Notes: a model not told the origin generated them from the sequence alone. 64,000 nucleotides of DNA from a virus (IMGVR_UViG_3300028591_003737:64001-128000); one strand, 5' to 3'. Numbered from the stretch's first letter, positions 2,667-15,083 are shown. Made by a program: numbers and translations.

Positions 2667-3554
2667 TTAAACCCAATGAGGATATATTTTTCCATTTTCA
2701 TGGATTACTCCAAAGAAATATGGTTTAGCAAATATCCATCTTGTACATATTTTTATAAAATCCCAAATATTTGCTTTCTTTAATTTACTTCTATAGAAAC
2801 AACTTCTTTTAATATAAAGATGACCATCAAAATTATCACCATATAATGACCATTTTTTAGCTCCTTTATATTCTGTCTTACAACCCCAAGCAAATGGAGA
2901 ATTCATCTTAATTCCAAGAGTTTTAGGAATATCTATATATAAATCATCTGCATCAAATAATTCACATATCTTTAAATTCTTAAAACCAAGACGATTAAAC
3001 ATCATTACATTATTTATGATATCATCTTTATTTTCAAAATATGGTTTAAAGATATTGATACTACCTAAAATCTTATCAGAACCACAATGTTCAAGAATTT
3101 CTTTATAAAATTCCTTTCTATCAAAATTACTTTTAGATTGTCTTATCATATCACTCATATTATCACTATAATATTGAAGTGATATTTGAATATTATCACA
3201 TTTATCTAGAATTTCAAAAAACTTATCTTTTTCTTTATAACAAATATTAGGTACACTTGTTATAACAAGAATTTTTAAATCAGTATTTTCTTTAATCCAA
3301 TTTACAAAATAAAGTAATTCATCAAGAAATATAAATGGTTCACCACCAGATATACATATATTTTTTACTTTGTCTTTATATTCATTAACAGTTTCAATTA
3401 TTTTATCTATTTCTGGTTTTTTAGTATTTACTCCTATATTTAATTTATCTATACAGAATTCACAATTATTAGGACATAATTTAGTAAAGTGAATCATAAG
3501 TTCACTTATTTTTGGTGAATGATCACATGTATTTATATTATATCTAATTTTCAT
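2667..3554 (-). CDS. radical SAM protein
   Basis: CxxxCxxC (CPNNCEFC) and SGGEP motifs; no obvious SPASM domain. Confidence 0.9.
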   Translation of the reverse strand: MKIRYNINTCDHSPKISELMIHFTKLCPNNCEFCIDKLNIGVNTKKPEIDKIIETVNEYKDKVKNICISGGEPFIFLDELLYFVNWIKENTDLKILVITSVPNICYKEKDKFFEILDKCDNIQISLQYYSDNMSDMIRQSKSNFDRKEFYKEILEHCGSDKILGSINIFKPYFENKDDIINNVMMFNRLGFKNLKICELFDADDLYIDIPKTLGIKMNSPFAWGCKTEYKGAKKWSLYGDNFDGHLYIKRSCFYRSKLKKANIWDFIKICTRWIFAKPYFFGVIHENGKIYPHWV

Positions 3555-3967: not shown

Positions 3968-4211
3968 CTTTCTTATCTTTTATACCTTTAGCAATTTCCA
4001 AAATATAAAGTCTTAAATCATGATAACATTCTGGATATGAACCATATTTTTTAATAGCACCAAAAATAAAAGCAAGTGCTTCATCTGCAATACCAGGTCC
4101 ACAAAATTCTCTATCATTATTCCAATCTGGTTCAATAGTACCAATAACTCTTGTTTTAGGATCAAGAATTTCTTTATTATCCTCTGTCAAAAACGCTGTT
4201 AATTTTTTCAT
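3960..4211 (-). CDS. hypothetical protein
   Basis: 83 aa; MKKLTAFLTE leader. Confidence 0.65.
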   Translation of the reverse strand: MKKLTAFLTEDNKEILDPKTRVIGTIEPDWNNDREFCGPGIADEALAFIFGAIKKYGSYPECYHDLRLYILEIAKGIKDKKDE

Positions 4212-4215
4212 AATA

Positions 4216-4488
4216 TTAATTTTTTATATAATCTTCTAAAATCATTGATTCAAATTTTTCAACAAATATTTTACATGTATCTTCATTTAATACATCTAAG
4301 GACAATTGATATGGGTCTCCAGATTTAATATATTGTCCTTCATCATTTTGTTTACATTCAGTACTTAAAAAGAAATATGAATTTTCTTTTTTTATAAATT
4401 CAACCATTACAAATTCACCATCTACATTTATAATGAATTTAACAAATGGTGAATTATCAATATAATTAATTAATTTTTCTTTATACAT
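4216..4488 (-). CDS. hypothetical protein
   Basis: likely start MYKEK just after pnuC stop. Confidence 0.6.
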   Translation of the reverse strand: MYKEKLINYIDNSPFVKFIINVDGEFVMVEFIKKENSYFFLSTECKQNDEGQYIKSGDPYQLSLDVLNEDTCKIFVEKFESMILEDYIKN

Positions 4489-4489
4489 A

Positions 4490-5116
4490 TTATTTACTCC
4501 ATTTAATATATCCATAAATACAATTCATAATCCAGAAAATGTATTGTACTATCATAAATATATTTCCAATATTTATCCAAAGAATAAGTGTAGCAATATC
4601 AACAATCAACCACATTATCCATTGTTCTCTATATCTAAACATCAACATAAATTGAGCAATAAATGCTGGTACTGTTGATATTGAGTCAAGAAATGGTCTA
4701 GGATCATTTGTTCTTAAAAGTATTATATATAGTAATATAGTACTTATAATAAATATACTACAACATAGTAACCAATCCTGCTTAGATAGTTTACGAGCAA
4801 TAACTTCTTTTTCCTCTTTATTATAATTCTTAATCCAAATAAAAAAAGCGATTGTTGTGGTAATTACATAAAATATATTTTCAACTAATTCGCCATAAAG
4901 ATGCTGTTGAAATATGATTACTATATAAGTAAACATTTGAATATAAGCAAATAAATAAAATGAAAGTTTCTTTTGAGAACAAAGAACCACATTTATTACT
5001 CCACTTAATCCACAAATAAATGAAAGTAAACTATCACCTGTAAATATATAACATATTATTTGAAGTAATACCCCAAATAACATAAATAACCAATCAAATG
5101 TTTTAATTTTACTCAT
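4490..5116 (-). CDS. pnuC: PnuC-family (nicotinamide riboside/vitamin) transporter
   Basis: 208 aa, about 7 TM helices; PFLDS, REQWIMWLIVD and C-terminal YGYIKW motifs. Confidence 0.88.
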   Translation of the reverse strand: MSKIKTFDWLFMLFGVLLQIICYIFTGDSLLSFICGLSGVINVVLCSQKKLSFYLFAYIQMFTYIVIIFQQHLYGELVENIFYVITTTIAFFIWIKNYNKEEKEVIARKLSKQDWLLCCSIFIISTILLYIILLRTNDPRPFLDSISTVPAFIAQFMLMFRYREQWIMWLIVDIATLILWINIGNIFMIVQYIFWIMNCIYGYIKWSK

Positions 5117-5167
5117 AATATATCAAAACTATCGTAATAATCAATAATTCTTTGATATTTATCCATA

Positions 5168-5491
5168 TTATTTAAAATATTTTTCTTCAAATGGTCTTAC
5201 TTTATAAGAATTTCTCCATGCAAGTATTTCTTCTTTACTAATTTCTCCATTTTGATATTGAAATTCTTTTGCTAAATCTCTTACCGCTGCCTTAAGATAT
5301 TTTATATCTTCAACATTATCATTTGGATCTCCACTATTAGGACTCATTCCAATTCTTATATTATGAGGTATCATTTGATGGAATCTTTCTTCATAATCCC
5401 AAATAGTAATATGAACATCTCCATCATTTCCAATGACAACTGTCATTTCTTGATCTGGTCCATCTATTGATTTTAATTTAAAACTATTCAT
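5168..5491 (-). CDS. hypothetical protein
   Basis: 107 aa ORF overlapping the upstream stop. Confidence 0.7.
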   Translation of the reverse strand: MNSFKLKSIDGPDQEMTVVIGNDGDVHITIWDYEERFHQMIPHNIRIGMSPNSGDPNDNVEDIKYLKAAVRDLAKEFQYQNGEISKEEILAWRNSYKVRPFEEKYFK

Positions 5492-5843
5492 ATCTTACTA
5501 CTTTAACAGGTATTCCTTTTTGTTTACATAAATCAATTGTATGTTTCGTTCCCTTTGATTTTCCATCCCAGAAACAAATAGCAGCAGAAGCAATATCTAC
5601 CATTTCTTTGTTTCTCCTATAGCCAGCACTTTTACCATATTTATCCCAATCTGCTGGATGAGAATCTATTTTATATCCTCTTTCTTTTGCATATTTCTCT
5701 CCAAGAGAATCAGCACCTCTTGCTGCACCAGATATAATTACTATTTCTGGATTATCTAAATTTGATAAATAGTAATCACATTTATTTTTTAATAATTCAT
5801 AATTATTAAAATCTCTACCACCAGCTATAATTACTTTAAACAT
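5484..5843 (-). CDS. YspA-like SLOG family protein (DUF2493)
   Basis: IIAGGRDF, SGAARGADSLGE, ADW..YGKSAG.RRN, FWDGKSKGT motifs. Confidence 0.88.
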   Translation of the reverse strand: MFKVIIAGGRDFNNYELLKNKCDYYLSNLDNPEIVIISGAARGADSLGEKYAKERGYKIDSHPADWDKYGKSAGYRRNKEMVDIASAAICFWDGKSKGTKHTIDLCKQKGIPVKVVRYE

Positions 5844-5845
5844 AA

Positions 5846-6085
5846 TTAAATTTCATAAGGTCTACTATATAAATATCTTTCAGAATCATATCTTCCTTGA
5901 CGACGAAGTTCACGTACTTCTCTATTCCAAAGTTCTTCATTAGTCCAACCACCTTGAAGATATTTAATATCATAACATACTGGAGTAAATTTATTTACAC
6001 CATAATGTCCACCAAAATAACAAGTATTTCTATTAAAAAATGCACATTCTCCACAATATGCTGGTATTTCATTTGGATTTCTCAT
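5846..6085 (-). CDS. small Cys-containing hypothetical protein
   Basis: 79 aa; CGECAFF motif. Confidence 0.65.
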   Translation of the reverse strand: MRNPNEIPAYCGECAFFNRNTCYFGGHYGVNKFTPVCYDIKYLQGGWTNEELWNREVRELRRQGRYDSERYLYSRPYEI

Positions 6086-6088
6086 AAT

Positions 6089-6259
6089 TTAATCTTGAAA
6101 ATGTTTTATTGTTCCTTCATACCAATCATCTGGTGTAGGTTCAAAATGAACTCCAATTGGTTTATCATAATTATCATTCTTTTCATCATCAGAATGATGA
6201 AAAATATTATAATCATAATCTGGTTGTTTATTACAACCATCATCACTAAAATGTTTCAT
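6089..6259 (-). CDS. small acidic hypothetical protein (56 aa)
   Basis: MKHFSDDGC...IKHFQD fills the gap; below ORF-track cutoff. Confidence 0.5.
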   Translation of the reverse strand: MKHFSDDGCNKQPDYDYNIFHHSDDEKNDNYDKPIGVHFEPTPDDWYEGTIKHFQD

Positions 6260-6287
6260 ATTTTTTTAATTATCTTTTATGTAATAA

Positions 6288-6659
6288 TTAAAATCCTTTT
6301 AATCCTCTTAATCCTCTATAGTATTTACCATAGAATTCTTTACCTTTATCAAATTCAGAATGACCACATTTATCAATGTATTTATTTATATCTTTTTGAT
6401 ATTTTTCATAAACATCATTCATAAGTACAGATATATTTACTTGTTCAAAGAAATGTTTATTGTTATCGTAAAAGCTTTTCATACGGAGAGCATGGTCAAA
6501 CTGTTCTCCAATCATAGTTCCATCCATATTAGATGTTGATACATCAAAATATGATACACCATCTTGTAATGCAAGATCTTGAAGATGAAACTTAAAGAAA
6601 GTTTTCTTAAAATCTTCTAAATCTTTACACTCACAAAACTTTAATTCTTTCTTACTCAT
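6288..6659 (-). CDS. hypothetical protein
   Basis: likely start MSKKEL, 1 nt after upstream stop. Confidence 0.65.
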   Translation of the reverse strand: MSKKELKFCECKDLEDFKKTFFKFHLQDLALQDGVSYFDVSTSNMDGTMIGEQFDHALRMKSFYDNNKHFFEQVNISVLMNDVYEKYQKDINKYIDKCGHSEFDKGKEFYGKYYRGLRGLKGF

Positions 6660-6660
6660 A

Positions 6661-6897
6661 TTACAATATTTTATATGCTTCTGCTTCAAGTGCAGGATAT
6701 TTACTAAAAGCACCATGTCTTACTTGGAATTCAAAAGAATCAATAGAATCAGGATTAATGTTATTCTCCATCAATTCATTTTTCCATTTATAAATTTCTC
6801 TCTCCCAGTAATGCCTTTCATTTTCTGAGGTTGCTTTATTTCTAAGACTATAACAGTCTTTTAACATTTCTGCTACATTATAAAGTCTGTCTGCCAT
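6661..6897 (-). CDS. hypothetical protein
   Basis: 78 aa ORF. Confidence 0.7.
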   Translation of the reverse strand: MADRLYNVAEMLKDCYSLRNKATSENERHYWEREIYKWKNELMENNINPDSIDSFEFQVRHGAFSKYPALEAEAYKIL

Positions 6898-6915
6898 AAT
6901 TATTAAATTTTTTTA

Positions 6916-6978
6916 ATAATGTTCATTATTTTATTTATGTTCATTAATTTTGAACATTGATATTTTTGTGAACATTAT
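6916..6978. promoter_or_regulatory. symmetric four-box element ATGTTCA-N11-ATGTTCA-N7-TGAACAT-N11-TGAACAT
   Basis: boxes at 6919, 6937, 6951, 6969; outer arms ATAATGTTCA/TGAACATTAT. Confidence 0.6.
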
Positions 6979-8087
6979 CCTTCAATTAAACTATTGATAT
7001 AATTCTTTACTTCAATAAAGTTCTCAAGATAAGATCCATTCAAATAAGTTTTATTTACATCAGGATAAAACTCAGCAACAAGTTTCTGAAGTTTTTCAAA
7101 ATTCTTATTTCTTTCTTCCATCGAAGCTTGTTTCATATATCTTACTCCATCATTTACAAAATTCTTAGATGGAGGGAATATGAATATTCTATCCCATTTA
7201 TATTCATAAATTTTATTTAACTCTTTAGCTTTCTCATAAAGGCAATCATAATCTTCTTTAGAAAGATAAATATCATAATCCTCTACATAAGCAAGAGCAT
7301 ACATAAGAGTTACTGTATTATCAGTATCTGAAATAAATACACCATTCTTTGATTTTCTTCTTTCAGTATCACAATAATCTAACTGTCCATTTAAGAAAGC
7401 ATCAAAATCGGCATATGTTAAATCTTTATCAGTTATATTGTCTGCCTTCATATAATCTCTACCATATTCTCTTGCATAAGGTATATCAAAATAATTAGCA
7501 ATATCTCTTACCAGTGTAGACTTACCTTCACTTGCAGTACCAATAACAAGAATATTCTTACAAAGATATGGTTTAAATGGAGCTGTAATTTTATTCCAAT
7601 ACTTAACAGGATTTTTTCTAATCTGTGTACCAGAAACTTGATTTACTTTATCAATAAGAACTACATTACAAGGATAATTATTTCCTTCAATATAAATACT
7701 TTCAAGGCATTTCTTATAAAATGGTTCAGCTACATACCAAGTTATTTTATAGTCTTCTGTTGTAACACTAATTTCATCCTTATTAATATATTCCATTACC
7801 TTTTTAGTCCAGATTTCCCAGTTATGCGTAGACATACTTTCATCAAGACCAAGCTCAGTATCATTAATCTTTCTAACTCTAATCTGCTCATCATATCTGA
7901 AGAAATCATAAATTAAAGTATATCTTTCATCAAGATTAAGATTAATTTCCCAACCACGAGGTTCATTATCATAACCGCATACAATAACATAACAGATGTC
8001 ATTTTCTTTCTTAGCTCTCATAATGACATCCATATGTCCTTGGTGAAGTGGGCAATAACCACCAAAACAAATACCTATATTTTTCAT
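6975..8087 (-). CDS. nadR: NadR-like bifunctional NMN adenylyltransferase / ribosylnicotinamide kinase (no HTH)
   Basis: N-terminal FGGYCPLHQGH (HxGH), SGTQIR.NP, Walker A GTASEGKST, EYGR, DTD motifs. Confidence 0.9.
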   Translation of the reverse strand: MKNIGICFGGYCPLHQGHMDVIMRAKKENDICYVIVCGYDNEPRGWEINLNLDERYTLIYDFFRYDEQIRVRKINDTELGLDESMSTHNWEIWTKKVMEYINKDEISVTTEDYKITWYVAEPFYKKCLESIYIEGNNYPCNVVLIDKVNQVSGTQIRKNPVKYWNKITAPFKPYLCKNILVIGTASEGKSTLVRDIANYFDIPYAREYGRDYMKADNITDKDLTYADFDAFLNGQLDYCDTERRKSKNGVFISDTDNTVTLMYALAYVEDYDIYLSKEDYDCLYEKAKELNKIYEYKWDRIFIFPPSKNFVNDGVRYMKQASMEERNKNFEKLQKLVAEFYPDVNKTYLNGSYLENFIEVKNYINSLIEG

Positions 8088-8338
8088 ATTACAAATGTAG
8101 TCTTTTTAATACATTCTTCCATTTCTTCTCTAGTCCAAATCTTTGGTTGATCTAACTCATATATCTTAATTCCAAGACAATCATGACCAGCAATCTTAAG
8201 AGTTTTTCTAAGAAAACGTTCAAGTTCTTCATTATTTTCAGAACTATCAACTACAAAATCAAAACCTAAAAATTGAGGTCCACCACACCTAATATCTTCC
8301 CAATCATTTTGTTCGCAATCAATTACAACTCTTTTCAT
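8084..8338 (-). CDS. hypothetical protein
   Basis: 84 aa; ATGA overlap with nadR. Confidence 0.7.
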   Translation of the reverse strand: MKRVVIDCEQNDWEDIRCGGPQFLGFDFVVDSSENNEELERFLRKTLKIAGHDCLGIKIYELDQPKIWTREEMEECIKKTTFVI

Positions 8339-8339
8339 A

Positions 8340-8987
8340 TTAAATAAATTTAATTCTTAATGAAACAATTTCTCCTTTACTATTCTTTCCAGCATAAAGA
8401 TTATAACTACCATCACCAAATCCACTAAAACTAATAACACATTTATTATCAAGTGCTATAGCATCTCTTCTTTCTTGACCAGAATATTCCCAGTGGCCTT
8501 CTCTTGGATTACTAATAGTTCCATCTTCATTAAAGGTCCAATCATCTACCCAATGAGGTTCTATAAAATCTTTACCATTAATATCAAAATCATATCTTAA
8601 ATCAAACTGTCTTTCATACCACTCATCACTTTCGGGGTAATCATCAATATATTTACCTTCTTCAAGAGTATGATATTTTTCAAAGTATTCTTTATCATAA
8701 ATACCTGCAGCACCACTATCTACTCCAATATCAATATTTTTATCAAGAAGTTTAGTAGGAAAATTTTTAATATATTTTTCATGTGCTATCCAAAGATCAG
8801 TCTCACGAATACCACCAAATCCACCAGGACCAAAATCTTTCTTATATACAAATCCATAATATTTTCCTGGTTTAAGACCTTCAACAAAGGCTTGACACCA
8901 AGTGCCTACTCCATAACAAGGATCACTTACATAAACTTTATCACTTAATTCTATTGTACCTAATTCTTGTTTATATTTTTTACTCAT
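8340..8987 (-). CDS. DUF4241-like protein
   Basis: VSDPCY, IGVDSG.AGI.D, SGFGDGSY..Y...GEIV motifs. Confidence 0.7.
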   Translation of the reverse strand: MSKKYKQELGTIELSDKVYVSDPCYGVGTWCQAFVEGLKPGKYYGFVYKKDFGPGGFGGIRETDLWIAHEKYIKNFPTKLLDKNIDIGVDSGAAGIYDKEYFEKYHTLEEGKYIDDYPESDEWYERQFDLRYDFDINGKDFIEPHWVDDWTFNEDGTISNPREGHWEYSGQERRDAIALDNKCVISFSGFGDGSYNLYAGKNSKGEIVSLRIKFI

Positions 8988-8992
8988 ATCTA

Positions 8993-9178
8993 TTATATTT
9001 GGTTTTTTATATAATTATATTCATATTGTATTAATTCTTCTTTATGTTCTTCTATATATTGTTCTACAAAGTTACGTATTTTGTCTTCATTAAATAAATT
9101 ATCAAAATTATTATTTGATTTAATAAAATCATTATTATTTGGTTCAATAAAAACTGTATCTTTTTTTAGTATTAACAT
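8993..9178 (-). CDS. small hypothetical protein
   Basis: N-terminus MLILKKDTVFIEP nearly identical to neighbour's. Confidence 0.6.
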   Translation of the reverse strand: MLILKKDTVFIEPNNNDFIKSNNNFDNLFNEDKIRNFVEQYIEEHKEELIQYEYNYIKNQI

Positions 9179-9356
9179 CCCATTTTAATTTATTAATTTC
9201 ATTTGCAATTTCTTTAGAAACAACTATATAATTTGCTTTACCTCTTTTACTTCTATTATTAATTTCATTAGCATGTTTAAACATTATATTAATAGATTCA
9301 GAAATTATCTTTTCTTCTGGATCTATAAATTGAGTATCTTTTTTAAGTTTTAACAT
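9144..9356 (-). CDS. small protein resembling a T4-like major capsid protein segment
   Basis: ANEINNRSKRGKANYIVVSKEIANEI resembles the gp23-family ..RRGKGNFII.S..VA.. segment. Confidence 0.55.
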   Translation of the reverse strand: MLKLKKDTQFIDPEEKIISESINIMFKHANEINNRSKRGKANYIVVSKEIANEINKLKWDVNTKKRYSFY

Positions 9357-9372
9357 AATTAAAATTATTTAG

Positions 9373-9407
9373 AAGTATATAGAGGAACATTCAACCTCTA
9401 TATACTT
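9373..9407 (-). terminator. putative terminator hairpin after the TonB-dependent receptor gene
   Basis: AAGTATATAGAGG-N9-CCTCTATATACTT 13-bp stem. Confidence 0.7.
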
Positions 9408-9413
9408 AATATT

Positions 9414-11486
9414 TTAGAAATAGAATTTAAGATCTGCAAAGAAATTAGTACCAGCTTCTCTGAACCAAAGAAGTTCTGTAGCTCCTTCTGCTGCATTATA
9501 ATAATTTACTCTATTAAGTAGATTATTTACTCTAAGACCAAATTCAACATTCTTATATCTATAGTTTCCATAGAAATTAAATGTAAGATAATAAGGAATC
9601 TCATACTTATTATTCTGATCAAGATACATCTTTGAATGATATAAATTATTTAGACCAACCTTAAAATTATTTCCTTTATAATAAATATCATTATTAAGAG
9701 TAAATGCAGGAGTAAGAATATGATACTTATTTGTAAAGTTTTCAGAATTTACTTTATTCTTGCTAAGTGAAGTATTAAGTGCATAATGAATTCCATTCCA
9801 AATATTCCAATCAAGACTTACTTCAACACCCATTCTATATGAATTAGTTGCAGTATCATGAAGAGGAAGACCATTCAAACCATATTGTCCATTAAGAATA
9901 CGCTCATTCTTGAAGTACATGTAATAAAGATTTACATTAGCTTCAATTCTATCTGATGTAACTACATAACCAGTTTCAACATCATATGAACGCTCAGCTT
10001 TATTAGTTGCAAGTTCATTAAGTTGACCAGTAGCTAAATACGCAATTCTGAGATCTTCATTTCCACCAAACATATCAGTTCTTGTAGGCTCACGAGAAAC
10101 CTCAGAATATCTTACATAGAACTTATTATAATTATTAAGATCAAAATCAACATTTAATCCATAGTTTATAAAGTTCCAATCAGTACCATATTTCTTTTTA
10201 CCAAAGGACCAAAGTGGATTCATATTATCAGCATAAGAAAAATCTACATGTCTATACTGAACATTTCCACCAAATGTAAACTTATAAAGCTTATAAGTTG
10301 CTGAAATAAAAGCATTAGCATCAAACTTATTACCAGTATTATCATAATATTCAGAAGGATCAACATTTACAAAATGAGAACTTAGTTTATCATTCATAAA
10401 ATGTTCTCTCTGATACTTATAAACATTTGCACCAGCAGTAAGTGTTACAGGTCCAAGATAAAATTTTCCAGCTAAATTACCTCCATAAAGATAATGTGTA
10501 AGCCCATAAGTATAAAGAATACCAGTAGCTCCCCATGTAGCATCAGCCATTCTAGTCATATAATTATCAAGGTCGAAATTATACCAACCATTCTGATACT
10601 GGAGGTAAGCAGATGCACTTAGAAGAACATTATTAGATAGCCAGCCCTTATATTGAATCTTATTAATACTCTGGAACCATTCATCATCTTCTGACTTAAG
10701 ATTACCATTTGCACGAGGATTAACAGTAAGTTCATTAAGAGTATTACCTAACCAACCTTGACCATTACGATGACGACCATTTAAAGAAATAAAATCAATA
10801 CTATGTTTAGGATTAAAGAAATATCCATACTTAATAGTAAATGCCTGAGAGTTATTGAATCCATAATCCTTAAAACCATCAGTCTGCTGCTGAGTAGCCT
10901 TTACATGAACTGCATTATGATTTCCAATAAGACCAGAATTATAAACTATACTTGTCTTATAAGTATTAAATGAACCACCACCTACATAACCATAACTTTC
11001 AGTATCTTTAAGTAAGTCAATAGATTCAAGATTAATACTACCACCACTAGATGCAGTACCATTATTTGTACTAGAAGTACCACGTTCAACCTTTAAAGTA
11101 TGAAGTGAAGACATAAGGTCTGGAGAATTAGCGAAATAAGTACCATAATCTTCAGCTTCATTCCAAGGCATACCATCAAGAGTAACATTGATACGAGTCT
11201 GATCAAGACCACGAATACGGAAATATCCATAACCAAATTCAGTACCATTATCATTCATACTGAAAATACCAGGCATCTTACGGAATACATGAGAAGGTTC
11301 CTGACCATGATTCTCAGATACAAGAGACTCATGATTTACAAGAGACCCAACATTAACTGTATTACGATAAAATGAAACAACTGACACTGAATCAATACTA
11401 TAAACATTTGTAGTGTCAACATTCTGTCCAAAGACAGAACCCATCATAAGAAAGATGGTAAGAATAAAAATTAAAATTTTCTTCAT
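9414..11486 (-). CDS. TonB-dependent outer-membrane receptor (resembles the Bacteroidota thiamine/vitamin TBDT family)
   Basis: signal peptide; plug motif GYGYFRIRGLDQTRINVTLDGMPWN..ERG...GGSINL; beta-barrel; C-terminal VNNLLN and terminal Phe. Confidence 0.92.
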   Translation of the reverse strand: MKKILIFILTIFLMMGSVFGQNVDTTNVYSIDSVSVVSFYRNTVNVGSLVNHESLVSENHGQEPSHVFRKMPGIFSMNDNGTEFGYGYFRIRGLDQTRINVTLDGMPWNEAEDYGTYFANSPDLMSSLHTLKVERGTSSTNNGTASSGGSINLESIDLLKDTESYGYVGGGSFNTYKTSIVYNSGLIGNHNAVHVKATQQQTDGFKDYGFNNSQAFTIKYGYFFNPKHSIDFISLNGRHRNGQGWLGNTLNELTVNPRANGNLKSEDDEWFQSINKIQYKGWLSNNVLLSASAYLQYQNGWYNFDLDNYMTRMADATWGATGILYTYGLTHYLYGGNLAGKFYLGPVTLTAGANVYKYQREHFMNDKLSSHFVNVDPSEYYDNTGNKFDANAFISATYKLYKFTFGGNVQYRHVDFSYADNMNPLWSFGKKKYGTDWNFINYGLNVDFDLNNYNKFYVRYSEVSREPTRTDMFGGNEDLRIAYLATGQLNELATNKAERSYDVETGYVVTSDRIEANVNLYYMYFKNERILNGQYGLNGLPLHDTATNSYRMGVEVSLDWNIWNGIHYALNTSLSKNKVNSENFTNKYHILTPAFTLNNDIYYKGNNFKVGLNNLYHSKMYLDQNNKYEIPYYLTFNFYGNYRYKNVEFGLRVNNLLNRVNYYNAAEGATELLWFREAGTNFFADLKFYF

Positions 11487-11507
11487 TATTTATTTTGTTT
11501 TAAAAGG

Positions 11508-11900
11508 TTAAATATTTAAACAAAGTGTTGACTCTGAAACACATTTACCATCAACATAAAGTGCTAAAGCATATCTAGTATTACCTATATCTGTTCTTTT
11601 TGCTTTAAAATCAACTTTAACATGATTTCTCAAAAAATTTGTAAGTATTTCAGGATTATCAGTCAAATATTTTTCAATATAAGTATTTATATTTTCTTGA
11701 GTAATGATTTGTTTTTTCTGTTTTTTACTTTTTCTAGATTTATGAGTAGTAAGTTTTTTGCTTACCTTTTTAGGATAAACATTTTCATCATTAACAGATA
11801 TATTATCTATACTAACATTATTCATTTTCCCAGTTCTATATAATTCATTAATTATATTATCAATAAAACTACTTATACTATCAATACTATTATCTACCAT
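11508..11900 (-). CDS. hypothetical protein
   Basis: 130 aa with basic central tract. Confidence 0.65.
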   Translation of the reverse strand: MVDNSIDSISSFIDNIINELYRTGKMNNVSIDNISVNDENVYPKKVSKKLTTHKSRKSKKQKKQIITQENINTYIEKYLTDNPEILTNFLRNHVKVDFKAKRTDIGNTRYALALYVDGKCVSESTLCLNI

Positions 11901-11932
11901 ATATTATCATCTTATATTAATTTAATATAGAA

Positions 11933-12331
11933 CTATTCATTCAAAGAATTTCCATCTGGAGAACAACAATATAAATCCTCAGATATAAGTGGTTTATATT
12001 TTCCTATATGTTTTTTATCTACAGGAAGCCAAGTATCTTTAGTATCTGTTTCTGTCCATTTTGGATTCTTTCGTATAACTTGACTACAATTAATTGCTAT
12101 TTCCATTCCTTCTTCGCGAGATACAAATCTACCTTTTGAAGTATAGAATCCCATAGCATTTTGCTCTTGAACAAGTTCATCTCCAAAGCGTAGAAAGATA
12201 TCATGATGACGATATCCTAATTCAATGTTTAGAATATCATTATTAACATGATATGGTTTACTTTCTACTTTTCTTGGTTCTTTTCTTTTCCAAGCAGCAC
12301 AAAGGATATATTCTTTTGTATTATCAATCAT
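11933..12331 (-). CDS. conserved phage hypothetical protein
   Basis: ILCAA..., GYRH, GFYTSKGRFVSREE, SEDLY motifs. Confidence 0.7.
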   Translation of the reverse strand: MIDNTKEYILCAAWKRKEPRKVESKPYHVNNDILNIELGYRHHDIFLRFGDELVQEQNAMGFYTSKGRFVSREEGMEIAINCSQVIRKNPKWTETDTKDTWLPVDKKHIGKYKPLISEDLYCCSPDGNSLNE

Positions 12332-12507
12332 AAATTATTTTCATTAGGAGTTTGTCTTTCACATAAACACCAACAATAATGATAACCATTAGATATACAT
12401 GCAGAAATTTGAATAATTTTCCAACCTTCTGTATTTAATTTTTCAACTTTATTATCAACTTCATATTGATAATCTCCATCTATTTTAATTATTTTCTGTT
12501 CAATCAT
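12328..12507 (-). CDS. small hypothetical protein (59 aa)
   Basis: MIEQKIIKIDGD...LNTEGWKIIQ; ATGA overlap with next gene. Confidence 0.55.
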   Translation of the reverse strand: MIEQKIIKIDGDYQYEVDNKVEKLNTEGWKIIQISACISNGYHYCWCLCERQTPNENNL

Positions 12508-13434: not shown

Positions 13435-13469
13435 AATATAGAAAAAGGTTTGAAAAATTCAAACCTTCT
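13435..13469 (-). promoter_or_regulatory. class-1 promoter overlapping hairpin AAGGTTTGAA-aaa-TTCAAACCTT
   Basis: TTGAA-N16-CTATATT; -35 lies in the inverted repeat, A-tract on + strand. Confidence 0.6.
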
Positions 13470-14070
13470 TAAATAAATTCTCAAATAAATTGTCTCTTGT
13501 AAATATCTGCCTTATATTACACCCAATATAGTTTCCTATAACTACAATTATATAATATATAGTTGGTTTCCATAGACCATAATTTAAAAACAAATTATCT
13601 TCTATTCCAAAATAGAATGCATCAGCAATAGAGTGATTAAAACCACATATAACAAATAAAGGAATACCAATAAGAAGAGGAATTACTGAATTATCTCTTT
13701 TAGATAAAAAGACTGAAATATCAACAATACATCCACACATAATTGCTTTTGATAATGTGACATACCATGGTGACATAAGTTTATTAAATATAATTGGAGA
13801 AAGATTATTTCCAATAGCACCATCATAAGTAAAGTGCATTAACCATGCTCCAAGTGAAGCTCCACCAATATTTAGGGCTAAAACTTCCATTTTAGTCCAA
13901 AACTTCTCTTCTGTACCAGCAATACCTGTATATAGTGGAGTTTGTAATTTGACTACACAAATAATACCAAAAGCAAATAGAAATGCTCCAATTATTCCAC
14001 CAACTTTAAGAAATGCATATCCACCGATAGCAATTAAAAATCCAGCAAAAATTTTTTTAAGAATATTCAT
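13459..14070 (-). CDS. formate/nitrite transporter (FNT) family channel
   Basis: AGFLIAIGG, LYTG, N..G, FVICGFNHSIAD, GN.IG motifs; multi-TM. Confidence 0.85.
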   Translation of the reverse strand: MNILKKIFAGFLIAIGGYAFLKVGGIIGAFLFAFGIICVVKLQTPLYTGIAGTEEKFWTKMEVLALNIGGASLGAWLMHFTYDGAIGNNLSPIIFNKLMSPWYVTLSKAIMCGCIVDISVFLSKRDNSVIPLLIGIPLFVICGFNHSIADAFYFGIEDNLFLNYGLWKPTIYYIIVVIGNYIGCNIRQIFTRDNLFENLFKKV

Positions 14071-14241: not shown

Positions 14242-14595
14242 TTAATCTACTACTTTTTCTCTTTTAAATATATACATAATAGCATAAGGTTTACCATCAC
14301 CGCCATAACTAGTTAATGCACTAAAACTTACTAATTCCCATTTAGCAACTTTATTTAAAAATGTTAAAATATCTTTAAATTTTTTAAAATCAAGTTTTTC
14401 ATAATATTTATCAAAATGATCTTCAATAGTTAAAAATCCATTATTTATATATGTTTTAATATCATTAAAATTATATTGATATGGTGTTTGTGGATGTTTC
14501 ATTTCAAGAGAAATAAAACCGCATATTTGCTCATAATCTATAATTATTTGATTATATTCATAATAACTATCTGATGTTGATTTTTTGTCTTTCAT
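14242..14595 (-). CDS. hypothetical protein
   Basis: 117 aa; LNKVAKWELV..YIFKRE. Confidence 0.65.
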   Translation of the reverse strand: MKDKKSTSDSYYEYNQIIIDYEQICGFISLEMKHPQTPYQYNFNDIKTYINNGFLTIEDHFDKYYEKLDFKKFKDILTFLNKVAKWELVSFSALTSYGGDGKPYAIMYIFKREKVVD

Positions 14596-15083
14596 TAGAA
14601 TAAATTTAATTGTTCTATCTTCTTTACTTCTTTTTCTGGAAGAGGACCTTTATCTCTAAGATAAGTTAATCTTCCACAGAATTCTGATGTAGTCAACACG
14701 GTTTCATTTATTTTATTCTTTCCTATAGAATGAGTTAATGTACTTCCTTTAGTTGCTTCAAGAGCTTTTCTAAATCCTTCATTCTTATAAAGTTGATTAT
14801 ATGCTCTATTCAAAAGATTCTGATATTCATCACTATCTCTTTTATACGTATCTCCAAGCCAATAAAGTTCTTGTTTTTGAAACCACTTCTTTTTCTTTCC
14901 TTTAAACTTTGCCGCTTTACCTACAAGAGTACATACATATTTCTGCATTTCAACAGATTCAAACTTCAATGACTGAAGAAATCCTTCCATTGAATTACAT
15001 TGTACTCCATCAATCTCAAATGGGTGTGGAGCAAAATTACTTAAGGTTCCAGCAGGATAACCATTACCACTTCCTATATCCAT
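14595..15083 (-). CDS. NADAR family protein (T4 gp30.3-like)
   Basis: LSNFAPHPFEIDG..C.SMEGFLQSLKF, LYW.G, LTHSIG, T.LT..EF motifs. Confidence 0.8.
   Translation of the reverse strand: MDIGSGNGYPAGTLSNFAPHPFEIDGVQCNSMEGFLQSLKFESVEMQKYVCTLVGKAAKFKGKKKKWFQKQELYWLGDTYKRDSDEYQNLLNRAYNQLYKNEGFRKALEATKGSTLTHSIGKNKINETVLTTSEFCGRLTYLRDKGPLPEKEVKKIEQLNLF

Follow-up and report, generated by a model that had tools for sequence, protein, structure and literature searches.

Does a giant phage carry its own route for an NAD+ precursor across both membranes of its host? The question is raised by a window of 64,000 nucleotides, positions 64001-128000 of the IMG/VR record IMGVR_UViG_3300028591_003737, which is 169.6 kb long. 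The window derives from a giant phage of the rumen, a relative of the Lak megaphages. At the DNA level the only relatives of the window are Prevotella Lak phages, and its PHROG matches include a phage topoisomerase II, a sigma-factor and a DNA-polymerase. An NAD-dependent DNA ligase domain is also encoded in this record, as is a gp30.3/NADAR protein at 14595-15083. A sequence-only reading of the window had placed a TonB-dependent receptor (TBDT), a NadR without a helix-turn-helix (HTH), a YspA/SLOG protein and a PnuC transporter on one strand. All four genes are found at the positions given there, on the minus strand, and Pfam matched their families (Table 1). Reading TAG as Gln leaves the four genes unchanged.

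Table 1. Coordinates of the features discussed, counted from the first nucleotide of the window
Feature	Position	Strand	Evidence
TonB-dependent outer-membrane transporter, 690 aa, of a NadR/PnuC-linked Bacteroidota family	9414..11486	-	Pfam Plug and barrel, AF2 model, homologues
Stable hairpin just past the TBDT stop	9373..9407	-	13-bp perfect stem, z -4.72
DUF4241 protein, lineage-specific insert between TBDT and nadR	8340..8987	-	PF14025, E 1.7e-10
HTH-less NadR-like enzyme, NMNAT and ribosylnicotinamide kinase domains, 370 aa	6975..8087	-	Pfam, NCBIfam, 6gye alignment
Four-box palindromic element at the nadR stop	6916..6978	.	Inverted repeats I1, I2
YspA/YAcAr SLOG protein, lineage-specific insert between nadR and pnuC	5484..5843	-	PF10686, phrog_289
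PnuC-family inner-membrane transporter, probably nicotinamide riboside type	4490..5116	-	PF04973, TIGR01528, 4qtn

Identity of the receptor, the enzyme and the transporter

The identities of the three genes are clear, and their catalytic motifs are intact, as the targeting motifs appear to be. The TBDT matches the Pfam Plug domain (PF07715, E 6.4e-10, 39.9 bits, cut-off 23.9) and, over residues 229-656, the TonB_dep_Rec_b-barrel (PF00593, E 1.1e-16, above the cut-off). It begins with a putative signal peptide, a hydrophobic leader that ends in GQ, and its last residue is Phe (...KFYF). Where cellular homologues have LxEVxV, the phage protein has an aligned TonB-box-like segment, IDSVSVV, with Ser replacing the usual Glu. 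The AF2 model (pLDDT 88.4, pTM 0.87) has a plug, with pLDDT above 85, and a full barrel. The best PDB matches are PqqU (9c4o), FyuA, YncD, FecA and BtuB, and the barrel model compares with solved TBDTs at TMq 0.73-0.79. A plug-and-barrel fold is confidently predicted, closest to TBDTs for small cofactors and siderophores. Homologues are encoded in all 15 Lak records (41-42% identity) and in LR756501/2/3 and LR745206 (31-35%). No TonB_C domain was found in the 169-kb record, so the receptor would rely on the energy coupling of the host and would have to be assembled in the outer membrane while the infection cycle lasts.

The NadR-like protein has the Pfam domains CTP_transf_like and AAA_28 (75.6 bits). 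On the NadR model NF005988, which has 411 positions, its alignment spans positions 63-407, and because it begins at 63 the N-terminal HTH is missing. The closest solved relative is the Lactococcus lactis NadR (6gye, E 6.5e-52). Aligned with it, the phage enzyme conserves the NMNAT motifs PLHxGH (PLHQGH) and SxTQIR (SGTQIR). In the kinase domain the Walker A motif GxASxGK[ST]T is GTASEGKST, aligned with GSASTGKTT of 6gye, and DTD is also conserved. The protein is 50-51% identical to the NadR of Lak phages. It scores below the NCBIfam equivalog cut-offs (206.3 bits against 341.15 for TIGR01526 and 138.7 against 201 for NF005988), and we therefore call it a divergent, NadR-like enzyme.

The transporter is a clear member of the PnuC family by PF04973 (E 8.2e-41, 140.3 bits, cut-off 27.3) and TIGR01528 (137.1 bits, cut-off 42.45), and it matches the nicotinamide riboside (NR) transporter 4qtn with E 1.3e-29. 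Several columns that discriminate PnuC from PnuT, W169 and D173 for example, have the state of the PnuC encoded in cellular operons. The Lak-type PnuC differs from the consensus of those operons at many conserved columns.

The receptor gene is linked to nadR and pnuC in cells and phages

We compared 80 cellular loci from Bacteroidota genomes and 51 viral loci from IMG/VR, all selected by TBDT similarity alone. The cellular TBDT homologues are full length and 30-34% identical to the phage protein. A NadR-like gene lies directly 3' of the TBDT gene in 71 of the 80 loci, with PnuC encoded in between in 42. All 71 of these NadR proteins keep the PxHxGH signature, and their median length of 333 aa indicates two-domain enzymes without the HTH. 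Genomes with the TBDT-NadR pair only still have Pnu genes elsewhere, and in a few Chitinophaga loci the TBDT gene has no partners nearby.

The viral loci give a similar picture. Both PnuC and NadR are encoded in 41 of the 51 contigs and NadR alone in six more. One contig with full flanks (L136) has the TBDT gene without partners nearby. In two megaphages, LR745206 and LR756502, start and stop of the successive genes of the trio overlap, and LR756501 and Lak-A1 also keep the trio. It is retained in four other megaphage lineages. In Lak-A1 nadR and pnuC are adjacent, and in close relatives of the window phage (L099, L100, L105 and L106) TBDT, NadR and PnuC are contiguous. Among phages the TBDT is represented by over 120 clusters (66-100% identity); every one is full length, and the contigs reach 473 kb.

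The linkage of the three genes is conserved in cells and phages, and the co-location of the receptor with the NAD genes is far beyond chance. The sequence-only reading had named, as a result that would count against it, a TBDT occurring independently of pnuC and nadR in related phages; the 41 contigs with both genes point the other way. Its proposal of a phage-borne outer-membrane step with a functional tie to PnuC and NadR is strongly supported by these comparisons, in which the TBDT belongs to a family of the Bacteroidota TBDT-PnuC-NadR operon. We consider the system, with a probability of about 70%, a phage-borne copy of a three-gene NAD-precursor salvage system of Bacteroidota.

Elements between the genes of the trio

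In the window the three genes are spread out. The 1.3 kb between TBDT and nadR contain four ORFs unrelated to the trio, and the 1.86 kb (about 1.9 kb) between nadR and pnuC contain seven small ORFs, also unrelated. The hairpin past the TBDT stop, which had been pointed out before, was confirmed by folding: it reaches -17.3 kcal/mol, and none of 200 shuffles fold as well. A simple terminator scan did not call it; it is possibly a terminator, an attenuator or an RNA-stabilising element. Given the two spacers and this strong hairpin, co-transcription of the trio in the window is doubtful. The element at the nadR stop consists of two ATGTTCA boxes followed by two TGAACAT boxes and is possibly a protein-binding site.

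The SLOG protein is well assigned (PF10686, 60.3 bits, cut-off 28.2, and a phrog_289 match). It had been counted with the pathway but does not belong to the module: neither in the 80 cellular loci nor in 56 other viral loci is a SLOG homologue encoded within 10 kb of the TBDT. Neither a DUF4241 homologue nor any of the remaining interleaved ORFs was found within 10 kb of the TBDT in the 56 viral loci. Since TBDT, NadR and PnuC are contiguous in close relatives, SLOG, DUF4241 and the small ORFs are lineage-specific inserts outside the module.

Other readings of the locus

A TBDT and a Pnu transporter are paired for thiamine uptake in Bacteroidota, and the trio could in principle be a module of the OMthi-PnuT type in which the kinase domain of the NadR-like protein traps thiamine. 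We searched the window, the loci L002-L004 and six cellular operons for a TPP riboswitch with Rfam and found none, whereas the same search detected one (66-71 bits) in the control loci L095 and L096, where the layout is TPP riboswitch-TBDT-PnuT. The same Bacteroidota genomes carry such a TPP-riboswitch-TBDT-PnuT locus, without NadR, separately from the operon. The identity of the phage TBDT to NadR-linked receptors is 30-34%, but only 26-27% to the thiamine TBDTs that have a riboswitch, and in the tree the thiamine pair lies 3 changes per column away. The likeness to a thiamine receptor proposed earlier thus holds at the level of the superfamily but not as a closer kinship. The partner enzyme is not a lone kinase: its NMNAT domain is complete, and the phage copies share PxHxGH with the cellular ones; no member of the TPK family was matched among the ORFs scanned, and the transporter has the PnuC rather than the PnuT state at the discriminating columns. 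With the control loci of the same genomes showing a riboswitch beside a far more distant TBDT, we rejected thiamine uptake, which is very improbable here.

Many phages use TBDTs as receptors, and some encode outer-membrane proteins that change the cell surface. The phage TBDT could accordingly act at the surface as a decoy or substitute for a host TBDT that serves as phage receptor, in superinfection exclusion or masking, and solved structures of FhuA bound to T5 pb5 and to Llp are among its fold matches. We regard such a role as highly unlikely: it leaves unexplained why free-living Bacteroidota have the gene in an operon with PnuC and NadR and why several phage lineages retain the trio contiguous, and the plug, the TonB-box-like segment and the barrel are intact, as one would expect of an active transporter. 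A little less remote, though still improbable, is an auxiliary TBDT unrelated to NAD, a SusC-like carbohydrate importer or a siderophore or metal receptor that just happens to be close to pnuC and nadR. The receptor of LR745206 and Mar_Mega_1 has been annotated as SusC with a suggested role in carbohydrate uptake (PMC9723777), siderophore and metal receptors are among the closest solved folds, and in the window the TBDT is set apart from nadR by the hairpin and by unrelated ORFs. However, the protein lacks the SusC-type N-terminal extension; Pfam found in it neither an STN domain nor the CarboxypepD_reg domain, which sets it apart from the distant relatives P0229 and P0186. No SusD-size gene lies beside it, the neighbors being ORFs of 70 and 130 aa. 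The linkage to NadR, with or without PnuC, in 71 of the 80 cellular loci and 47 of the 51 viral ones also argues against chance proximity, and in LR745206 itself the genes overlap. A different matter is what the NAD+ would be for. The trio may give general metabolic support rather than counter-defence, providing NAD+ for the ligase, for enzymes that handle ADP-ribose and for a long megaphage infection. We hold this tentatively as a serious possibility, if not the favored one. The ligase domain and the gp30.3/NADAR protein of this phage are in line with it, as is a study in which genes that make or consume NAD+ are described as a general feature among gut jumbo phages (PMC11662467). On the other side, the published NARP3 system acts against Sir2-HerA (PMC13464706). 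The two benefits are compatible, and the present data are in line with either.

Comparison with known systems

NARP3 of the Escherichia phage TrudiRoth consists of the PnuC-like transporter Bas30_87 and the HTH-less NadR-like enzyme Bas30_86; it was shown experimentally to import NR and to overcome Sir2-HerA, and its modules are largely confined to phages of Enterobacteriaceae (Yan et al., Sci Adv 2026, PMC13464706). With this pair of proteins it is closer to the window module than NARP1, NARP2 or the KVP40 genes, which had been cited before. The sequence-only reading as a whole is partly supported: the tie of the receptor to PnuC and NadR has strong support, and SLOG membership, the thiamine-receptor likeness and the published systems chosen for comparison are unsupported or call for correction. 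Both NARP3 and the window module are sets of lytic-phage genes that combine a PnuC-family transporter with an HTH-less NadR keeping its NMNAT and RNK domains, and in both NR is expected to be converted to NMN and on to NAD+. Unlike NARP3, the window module has a dedicated TonB-dependent outer-membrane receptor; TonB, the outer membrane and Bacteroidota are not mentioned in the NARP3 paper (PMC13464706). The enzymes are also distant. The window NadR matches the Bas30_86-like 9x6f with E 3.8e-15, against the far stronger match to the L. lactis NadR, and is about 25% identical to the NadR of T5-like phages. In contrast to the two-gene NARP3 cassette, nadR and pnuC are not adjacent in the window, though they are in Lak-A1 and close relatives.

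The cellular TBDT-PnuC-NadR operon, of which we found no description in the searchable literature, is encoded in Flammeovirga, Chitinophaga, Zobellia, Capnocytophaga, Dysgonomonas, Porphyromonas and others. The three gene families are those of the phage module, with genes overlapping or close and mostly in the order of the LR megaphages; the Lak-type order is TBDT-NadR-PnuC. The phage copies form lineages of their own, the Lak-type clade (99% support) being sister to the rest, and the window carries extra inserts.

The thiamine system of Bacteroides (TPP riboswitch, OMthi TBDT, PnuT and thiamine pyrophosphokinase) shares the logic of an outer-membrane TBDT, an inner-membrane Pnu facilitator and a trapping enzyme, but the phage module has no TPP riboswitch, has NadR instead of TPK and uses other TBDT and Pnu subfamilies. 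Haemophilus influenzae takes up NAD and NR by a two-membrane route to NAD+ that ends in PnuC and NadR (PMC6593275), as does the path from outside the cell predicted here. Its outer-membrane step is the passive porin OmpP2 with the periplasmic hydrolases NadN and e(P4), whereas the window module has a predicted energised TBDT and no linked periplasmic nucleotidase. PqqU and YncD (9c4o, 6v81), the best structural matches to the TBDT model (TMq 0.78-0.79), are small classic TBDTs that scavenge a small redox cofactor, PqqU importing PQQ. They share only 16% sequence identity with the phage receptor and have another ligand and unrelated genomic partners.

A proposed route from outside the cell to NAD+

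Many Bacteroidota and giant phages have the trio as an operon, so its most likely function is NR import across both host membranes and NAD+ synthesis. The TBDT would be exported, assembled in the outer membrane of the host and energised by the host TonB complex, on which it presumably depends. It would take up a pyridine nucleoside or nucleotide. NR is the most likely ligand; NMN or NAD+, trimmed in the periplasm, or another riboside is possible. NR would then cross the inner membrane through PnuC and be trapped as NMN by the kinase domain of the HTH-less NadR, and the NMNAT domain would adenylate NMN to NAD+. This NAD+ could supply the NAD+ consumers of the phage, refill pools drained by NADase defences, or both; an anti-defence benefit in the window phage is plausible.

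PnuC with an HTH-less NadR is already published as NARP3. New here are the receptor and the Bacteroidota setting. The module would in effect be NARP3 plus a dedicated outer-membrane receptor, fitted to hosts that use TBDTs for vitamins.

A receptor, NadR and PnuC encoded in a Lak-type megaphage

The window has a G+C content of 25-30% and encodes a phage-type topoisomerase II, a sigma factor, a DNA polymerase, and Ig-domain tail proteins. It lies in an IMG/VR virus record of 169.6 kb, and its only DNA-level relatives are Prevotella Lak megaphages. Gut metagenomes from sheep, goats, and cattle contain near-identical DNA. The four genes named in the sequence-only reading, coding for a TonB-dependent transporter (TBDT), a NadR-like protein, a YspA/YAcAr SLOG protein, and PnuC, are all present. 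None of them is altered when TAG is read as Gln, as in some Lak phages.

Features of the window around the TBDT, nadR, and pnuC genes
Feature	Position	Strand	Length	Family, match or remark
Radical SAM gene	2667-3554	-		downstream of pnuC
PnuC	4490-5116	-	208 aa	Pnu transporter
YspA/YAcAr SLOG protein	5484-5843	-		SLOG family
Palindromic four-box element	6916-6978			two ATGTTCA, then two TGAACAT; overlaps nadR stop codon
NadR-like protein	6975-8087	-	370 aa	NadR family
Small ORF	9144-9356	-	70 aa	just after the TBDT hairpin; weak match to phrog_138 (major head protein), E 5.7e-5, 37 residues
Hairpin	9373-9407			perfect 13-bp stem, z -4.72
TBDT	9414-11486	-	690 aa	TonB-dependent transporter
Formate/nitrite transporter family member	13459-14070	-		PF01226, E 1.7e-13
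gp30.3/NADAR-family protein	14595-15083	-		PF08010, E 9.2e-55

The TBDT has a leader peptide and a C-terminal Phe. Its TonB-box-like segment, IDSVSVV, lines up with LxEVxV in cellular homologues. An AlphaFold2 model from a 57-row alignment (pLDDT 88.4, pTM 0.87) forms a complete barrel enclosing the plug. Foldseek placed the TBDT among the classic small TBDTs, with PqqU as the top match (TMq 0.79) followed by FyuA, YncD, FecA, and BtuB. The SusC-type N-terminal extension is absent, no gene of SusD size adjoins the TBDT, and NCBIfam has no model specific to it. A search for TonB_C in the 169-kb record, which is a fragment, gave no match.

Both domains of the NadR align with those of L. lactis NadR (6gye, E 6.5e-52), and the PLHxGH, SxTQIR, Walker A loop, and DTD motifs are retained. 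The alignment to the trifunctional NadR model begins at model position 63, so the HTH is absent. The score is below the NCBIfam equivalog cut-offs and the enzyme is therefore a divergent NadR. PnuC scores exceed both the Pfam and the TIGR01528 cut-off, and the protein matches 4qtn, a solved nicotinamide riboside (NR) transporter (E 1.3e-29).

A demand for NAD+ by the phage is plausible because the record encodes an NAD-dependent DNA ligase adenylation domain (G000:C1:50855-51589, outside the window), an NAD+ consumer, in a 634-aa ORF, together with the gp30.3/NADAR protein. The latter may handle ADP-ribose, which would fit an NAD-centred gene neighbourhood. The formate/nitrite transporter family member adds a second membrane transporter to the surroundings of the module.

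Linkage of the receptor to NadR and PnuC in phages

All 15 Lak records of the phage collection encode a TBDT homologue (41-42% identity), as do the phages LR745206 and LR756501/2/3, of 634-735 kb (31-35%). Start-to-stop overlaps join the ORFs for the TBDT, PnuC, and NadR in LR745206 and LR756502, while two small ORFs interrupt the trio in LR756501. Lak-A1 has an adjacent NadR-PnuC pair with the TBDT 5 kb upstream. Between its TBDT and nadR is a 431-aa ORF (L001 5693-6988) that stays open only if its seven in-frame TAG codons are taken as sense codons; the genes of the Lak-A1 trio have no such codon.

Scanning IMG/VR with the TBDT alignment gave 51 contigs. Independence of the TBDT from pnuC and nadR, the outcome named beforehand as counting against the proposed link, was not what these related phages showed: both partners are downstream of the TBDT in 41 of the 51, NadR alone in six, and PnuC alone in one. 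Neither is present in the other three, two of which terminate at the TBDT. In the nearest relatives (L099, with a TBDT identity of 60%, L100, L105, and L106) the order is TBDT-NadR-PnuC with zero intervening genes. Homologues of the ORFs interleaved in the window, including the SLOG and DUF4241 genes, are missing within 10 kb of the TBDT at 56 other viral loci, so we regard these ORFs as lineage-specific inserts. The SLOG protein, originally proposed as a pathway member, accordingly drops out of the module.

A radical SAM gene is kept directly 3' of PnuC in 13 related viral loci (43-46% identity), and LR745206 also has one just after the trio. No orthology between the window and LR745206 copies is detectable, so the radical SAM genes were left out of the module.

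The hairpin reported between the TBDT and nadR was confirmed, with no call there from a simple terminator scan. A sigma-70 promoter scan of 4000-12500 was uninformative (62 sites against 67 expected). Given the hairpin and the inserted ORFs, the TBDT, nadR, and pnuC of the window possibly form three separate transcription units. The palindromic element is a possible binding site for a protein that controls the genes downstream. Contigs from RNA libraries of two studies, X3 and X16 from one sheep-gut sample and X17 from a bovine metatranscriptome, contain stretches that match parts of the TBDT exactly. Exact matches to parts of nadR occur in X3 as well, and the stretch of X17 over nadR shows four differences. 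Being contigs of partial coverage, and possibly the product of DNA carry-over, they were rejected as a demonstration of transcription or operon structure and give only a weak hint of expression.

Cellular homologues of the receptor lie in an operon in Bacteroidota

An exhaustive profile-free search gave 1,242 representatives at E < 1e-10. Their alignment, scanned against one genome per species, yielded 80 cellular loci, almost all from Bacteroidota, each with a full-length TBDT homologue of 30-34% identity. A NadR-like gene directly follows the TBDT in 71 of the 80. PnuC is encoded between the two in 42 loci, and two further contigs end inside PnuC. In five of five genomes that have the TBDT-NadR pair alone, Pnu transporters are encoded elsewhere. 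Like the phage enzyme, the cellular NadR has two domains and lacks the HTH, as the PxHxGH signature is found in 71 of 71 and the median length is 333 aa. A few partnerless loci from Chitinophaga sit among linked ones in the tree. The literature searched yielded no paper describing a TBDT-PnuC-NadR operon or tying a TBDT to pnuC or nadR, an absence that is not proof.

The locus L067, from a 'Prevotella sp.' MAG, was set aside as evidence of the operon in Prevotella hosts, being near-identical to L039 of Dysgonomonas. The distant TBDT relatives P0229 and P0186, whose contigs both stop right at the TBDT, gave no basis for setting the family boundary. Capnocytophaga (L097) and Zobellia (L098) have the operon plus a second PnuC beside a stand-alone kinase matching only the ribosylnicotinamide kinase half of NadR, without a TBDT or a riboswitch.

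The Lak-type receptors, including that of the window, form one clade (99% SH-aLRT). It is sister to a group of LR745206/LR756502, cellular proteins, and LR756501, in which the LR756501 receptor pairs with an uncultured Bacteroidales contig. PnuC comes last in the Lak type (TBDT-NadR-PnuC), and NadR does in the LR phages and cells (TBDT-PnuC-NadR). The receptor tree and the differing gene order suggest that the genes were either captured repeatedly or rearranged long ago.

Thiamine or NAD precursors as the substrate

A Pnu transporter behind a TBDT could instead serve thiamine uptake. A second Pnu paralogue is encoded in four of five operon-carrying genomes, and in two of those four it lies behind another TBDT and a TPP riboswitch with no NadR nearby, the known thiamine arrangement. 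Identity of this riboswitch-linked TBDT to the phage protein is only 26-27%, and a tree built in IQ-TREE under a mixture model places it 3 changes per column from the node at which the phage and NadR-linked receptors join. Riboswitch searches of the window, the three LR loci, and six cellular operons gave no match of any family at threshold. At columns separating operon PnuC from the thiamine-type PnuT, the phage proteins mostly show the PnuC state.

The linkage in both phages and cells argues instead for a phage-carried receptor, PnuC, and NadR acting in NAD-precursor import and salvage. This reading, at the core of the original proposal, is well supported. Most likely the receptor carries NR, or NMN/NAD+ trimmed in the periplasm, over the outer membrane, powered by the host TonB. 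PnuC would then move NR inward and NadR would convert NR to NMN and then NAD+.

Relation to known systems

Phages often encode PnuC (729 records) and NadR (386 records). Both genes, with no receptor, are listed in a survey of gut jumbo phages from 2024 (PMC11662467). The name NARP3 was given to the pair in August 2026, when it was shown to import NR, synthesize NAD+, and overcome Sir2-HerA (PMC13464706). According to that paper, NARP3 modules are mostly confined to phages of Enterobacteriaceae, and the words TonB, outer membrane, and Bacteroid are absent from it (PMC13464706). The module described here shares the PnuC-NadR core of NARP3 but adds a receptor and is encoded in a Bacteroidota phage. 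By analogy with NARP3, we infer that the trio may relieve the window's phage of NADase defences.

The megaphage receptor has attracted attention once before, in Mar_Mega_1 and LR745206, where it was interpreted as a SusC for carbohydrates (PMC9723777). The overlap of the LR745206 gene with pnuC and nadR argues against carbohydrate uptake, and this linkage corrects the earlier interpretation.

What is new is a receptor-equipped, Bacteroidota-phage form of NARP3-type NR salvage, which points to an unnamed cellular receptor family. We think it somewhat better than an even chance (about 0.55) that the receptor represents an unnamed, Bacteroidota-wide TBDT family for vitamin-B3 ribosides/nucleotides, the first outer-membrane receptor for NAD precursors, and that giant phages captured the whole operon more than once as NARP3 plus a receptor, upholding NAD+ where the host outer membrane limits precursor entry, including under NADase attack. 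If so, phages can bring a whole nutrient route over both Gram-negative membranes, beyond cytoplasmic salvage enzymes, and NARP3 counter-defence would extend from enterobacterial phages to giant gut and rumen phages of Bacteroidota. The unannotated family of outer-membrane NAD-precursor receptors indicated in Bacteroidota would also bear on vitamin-B3 cross-feeding in gut communities.
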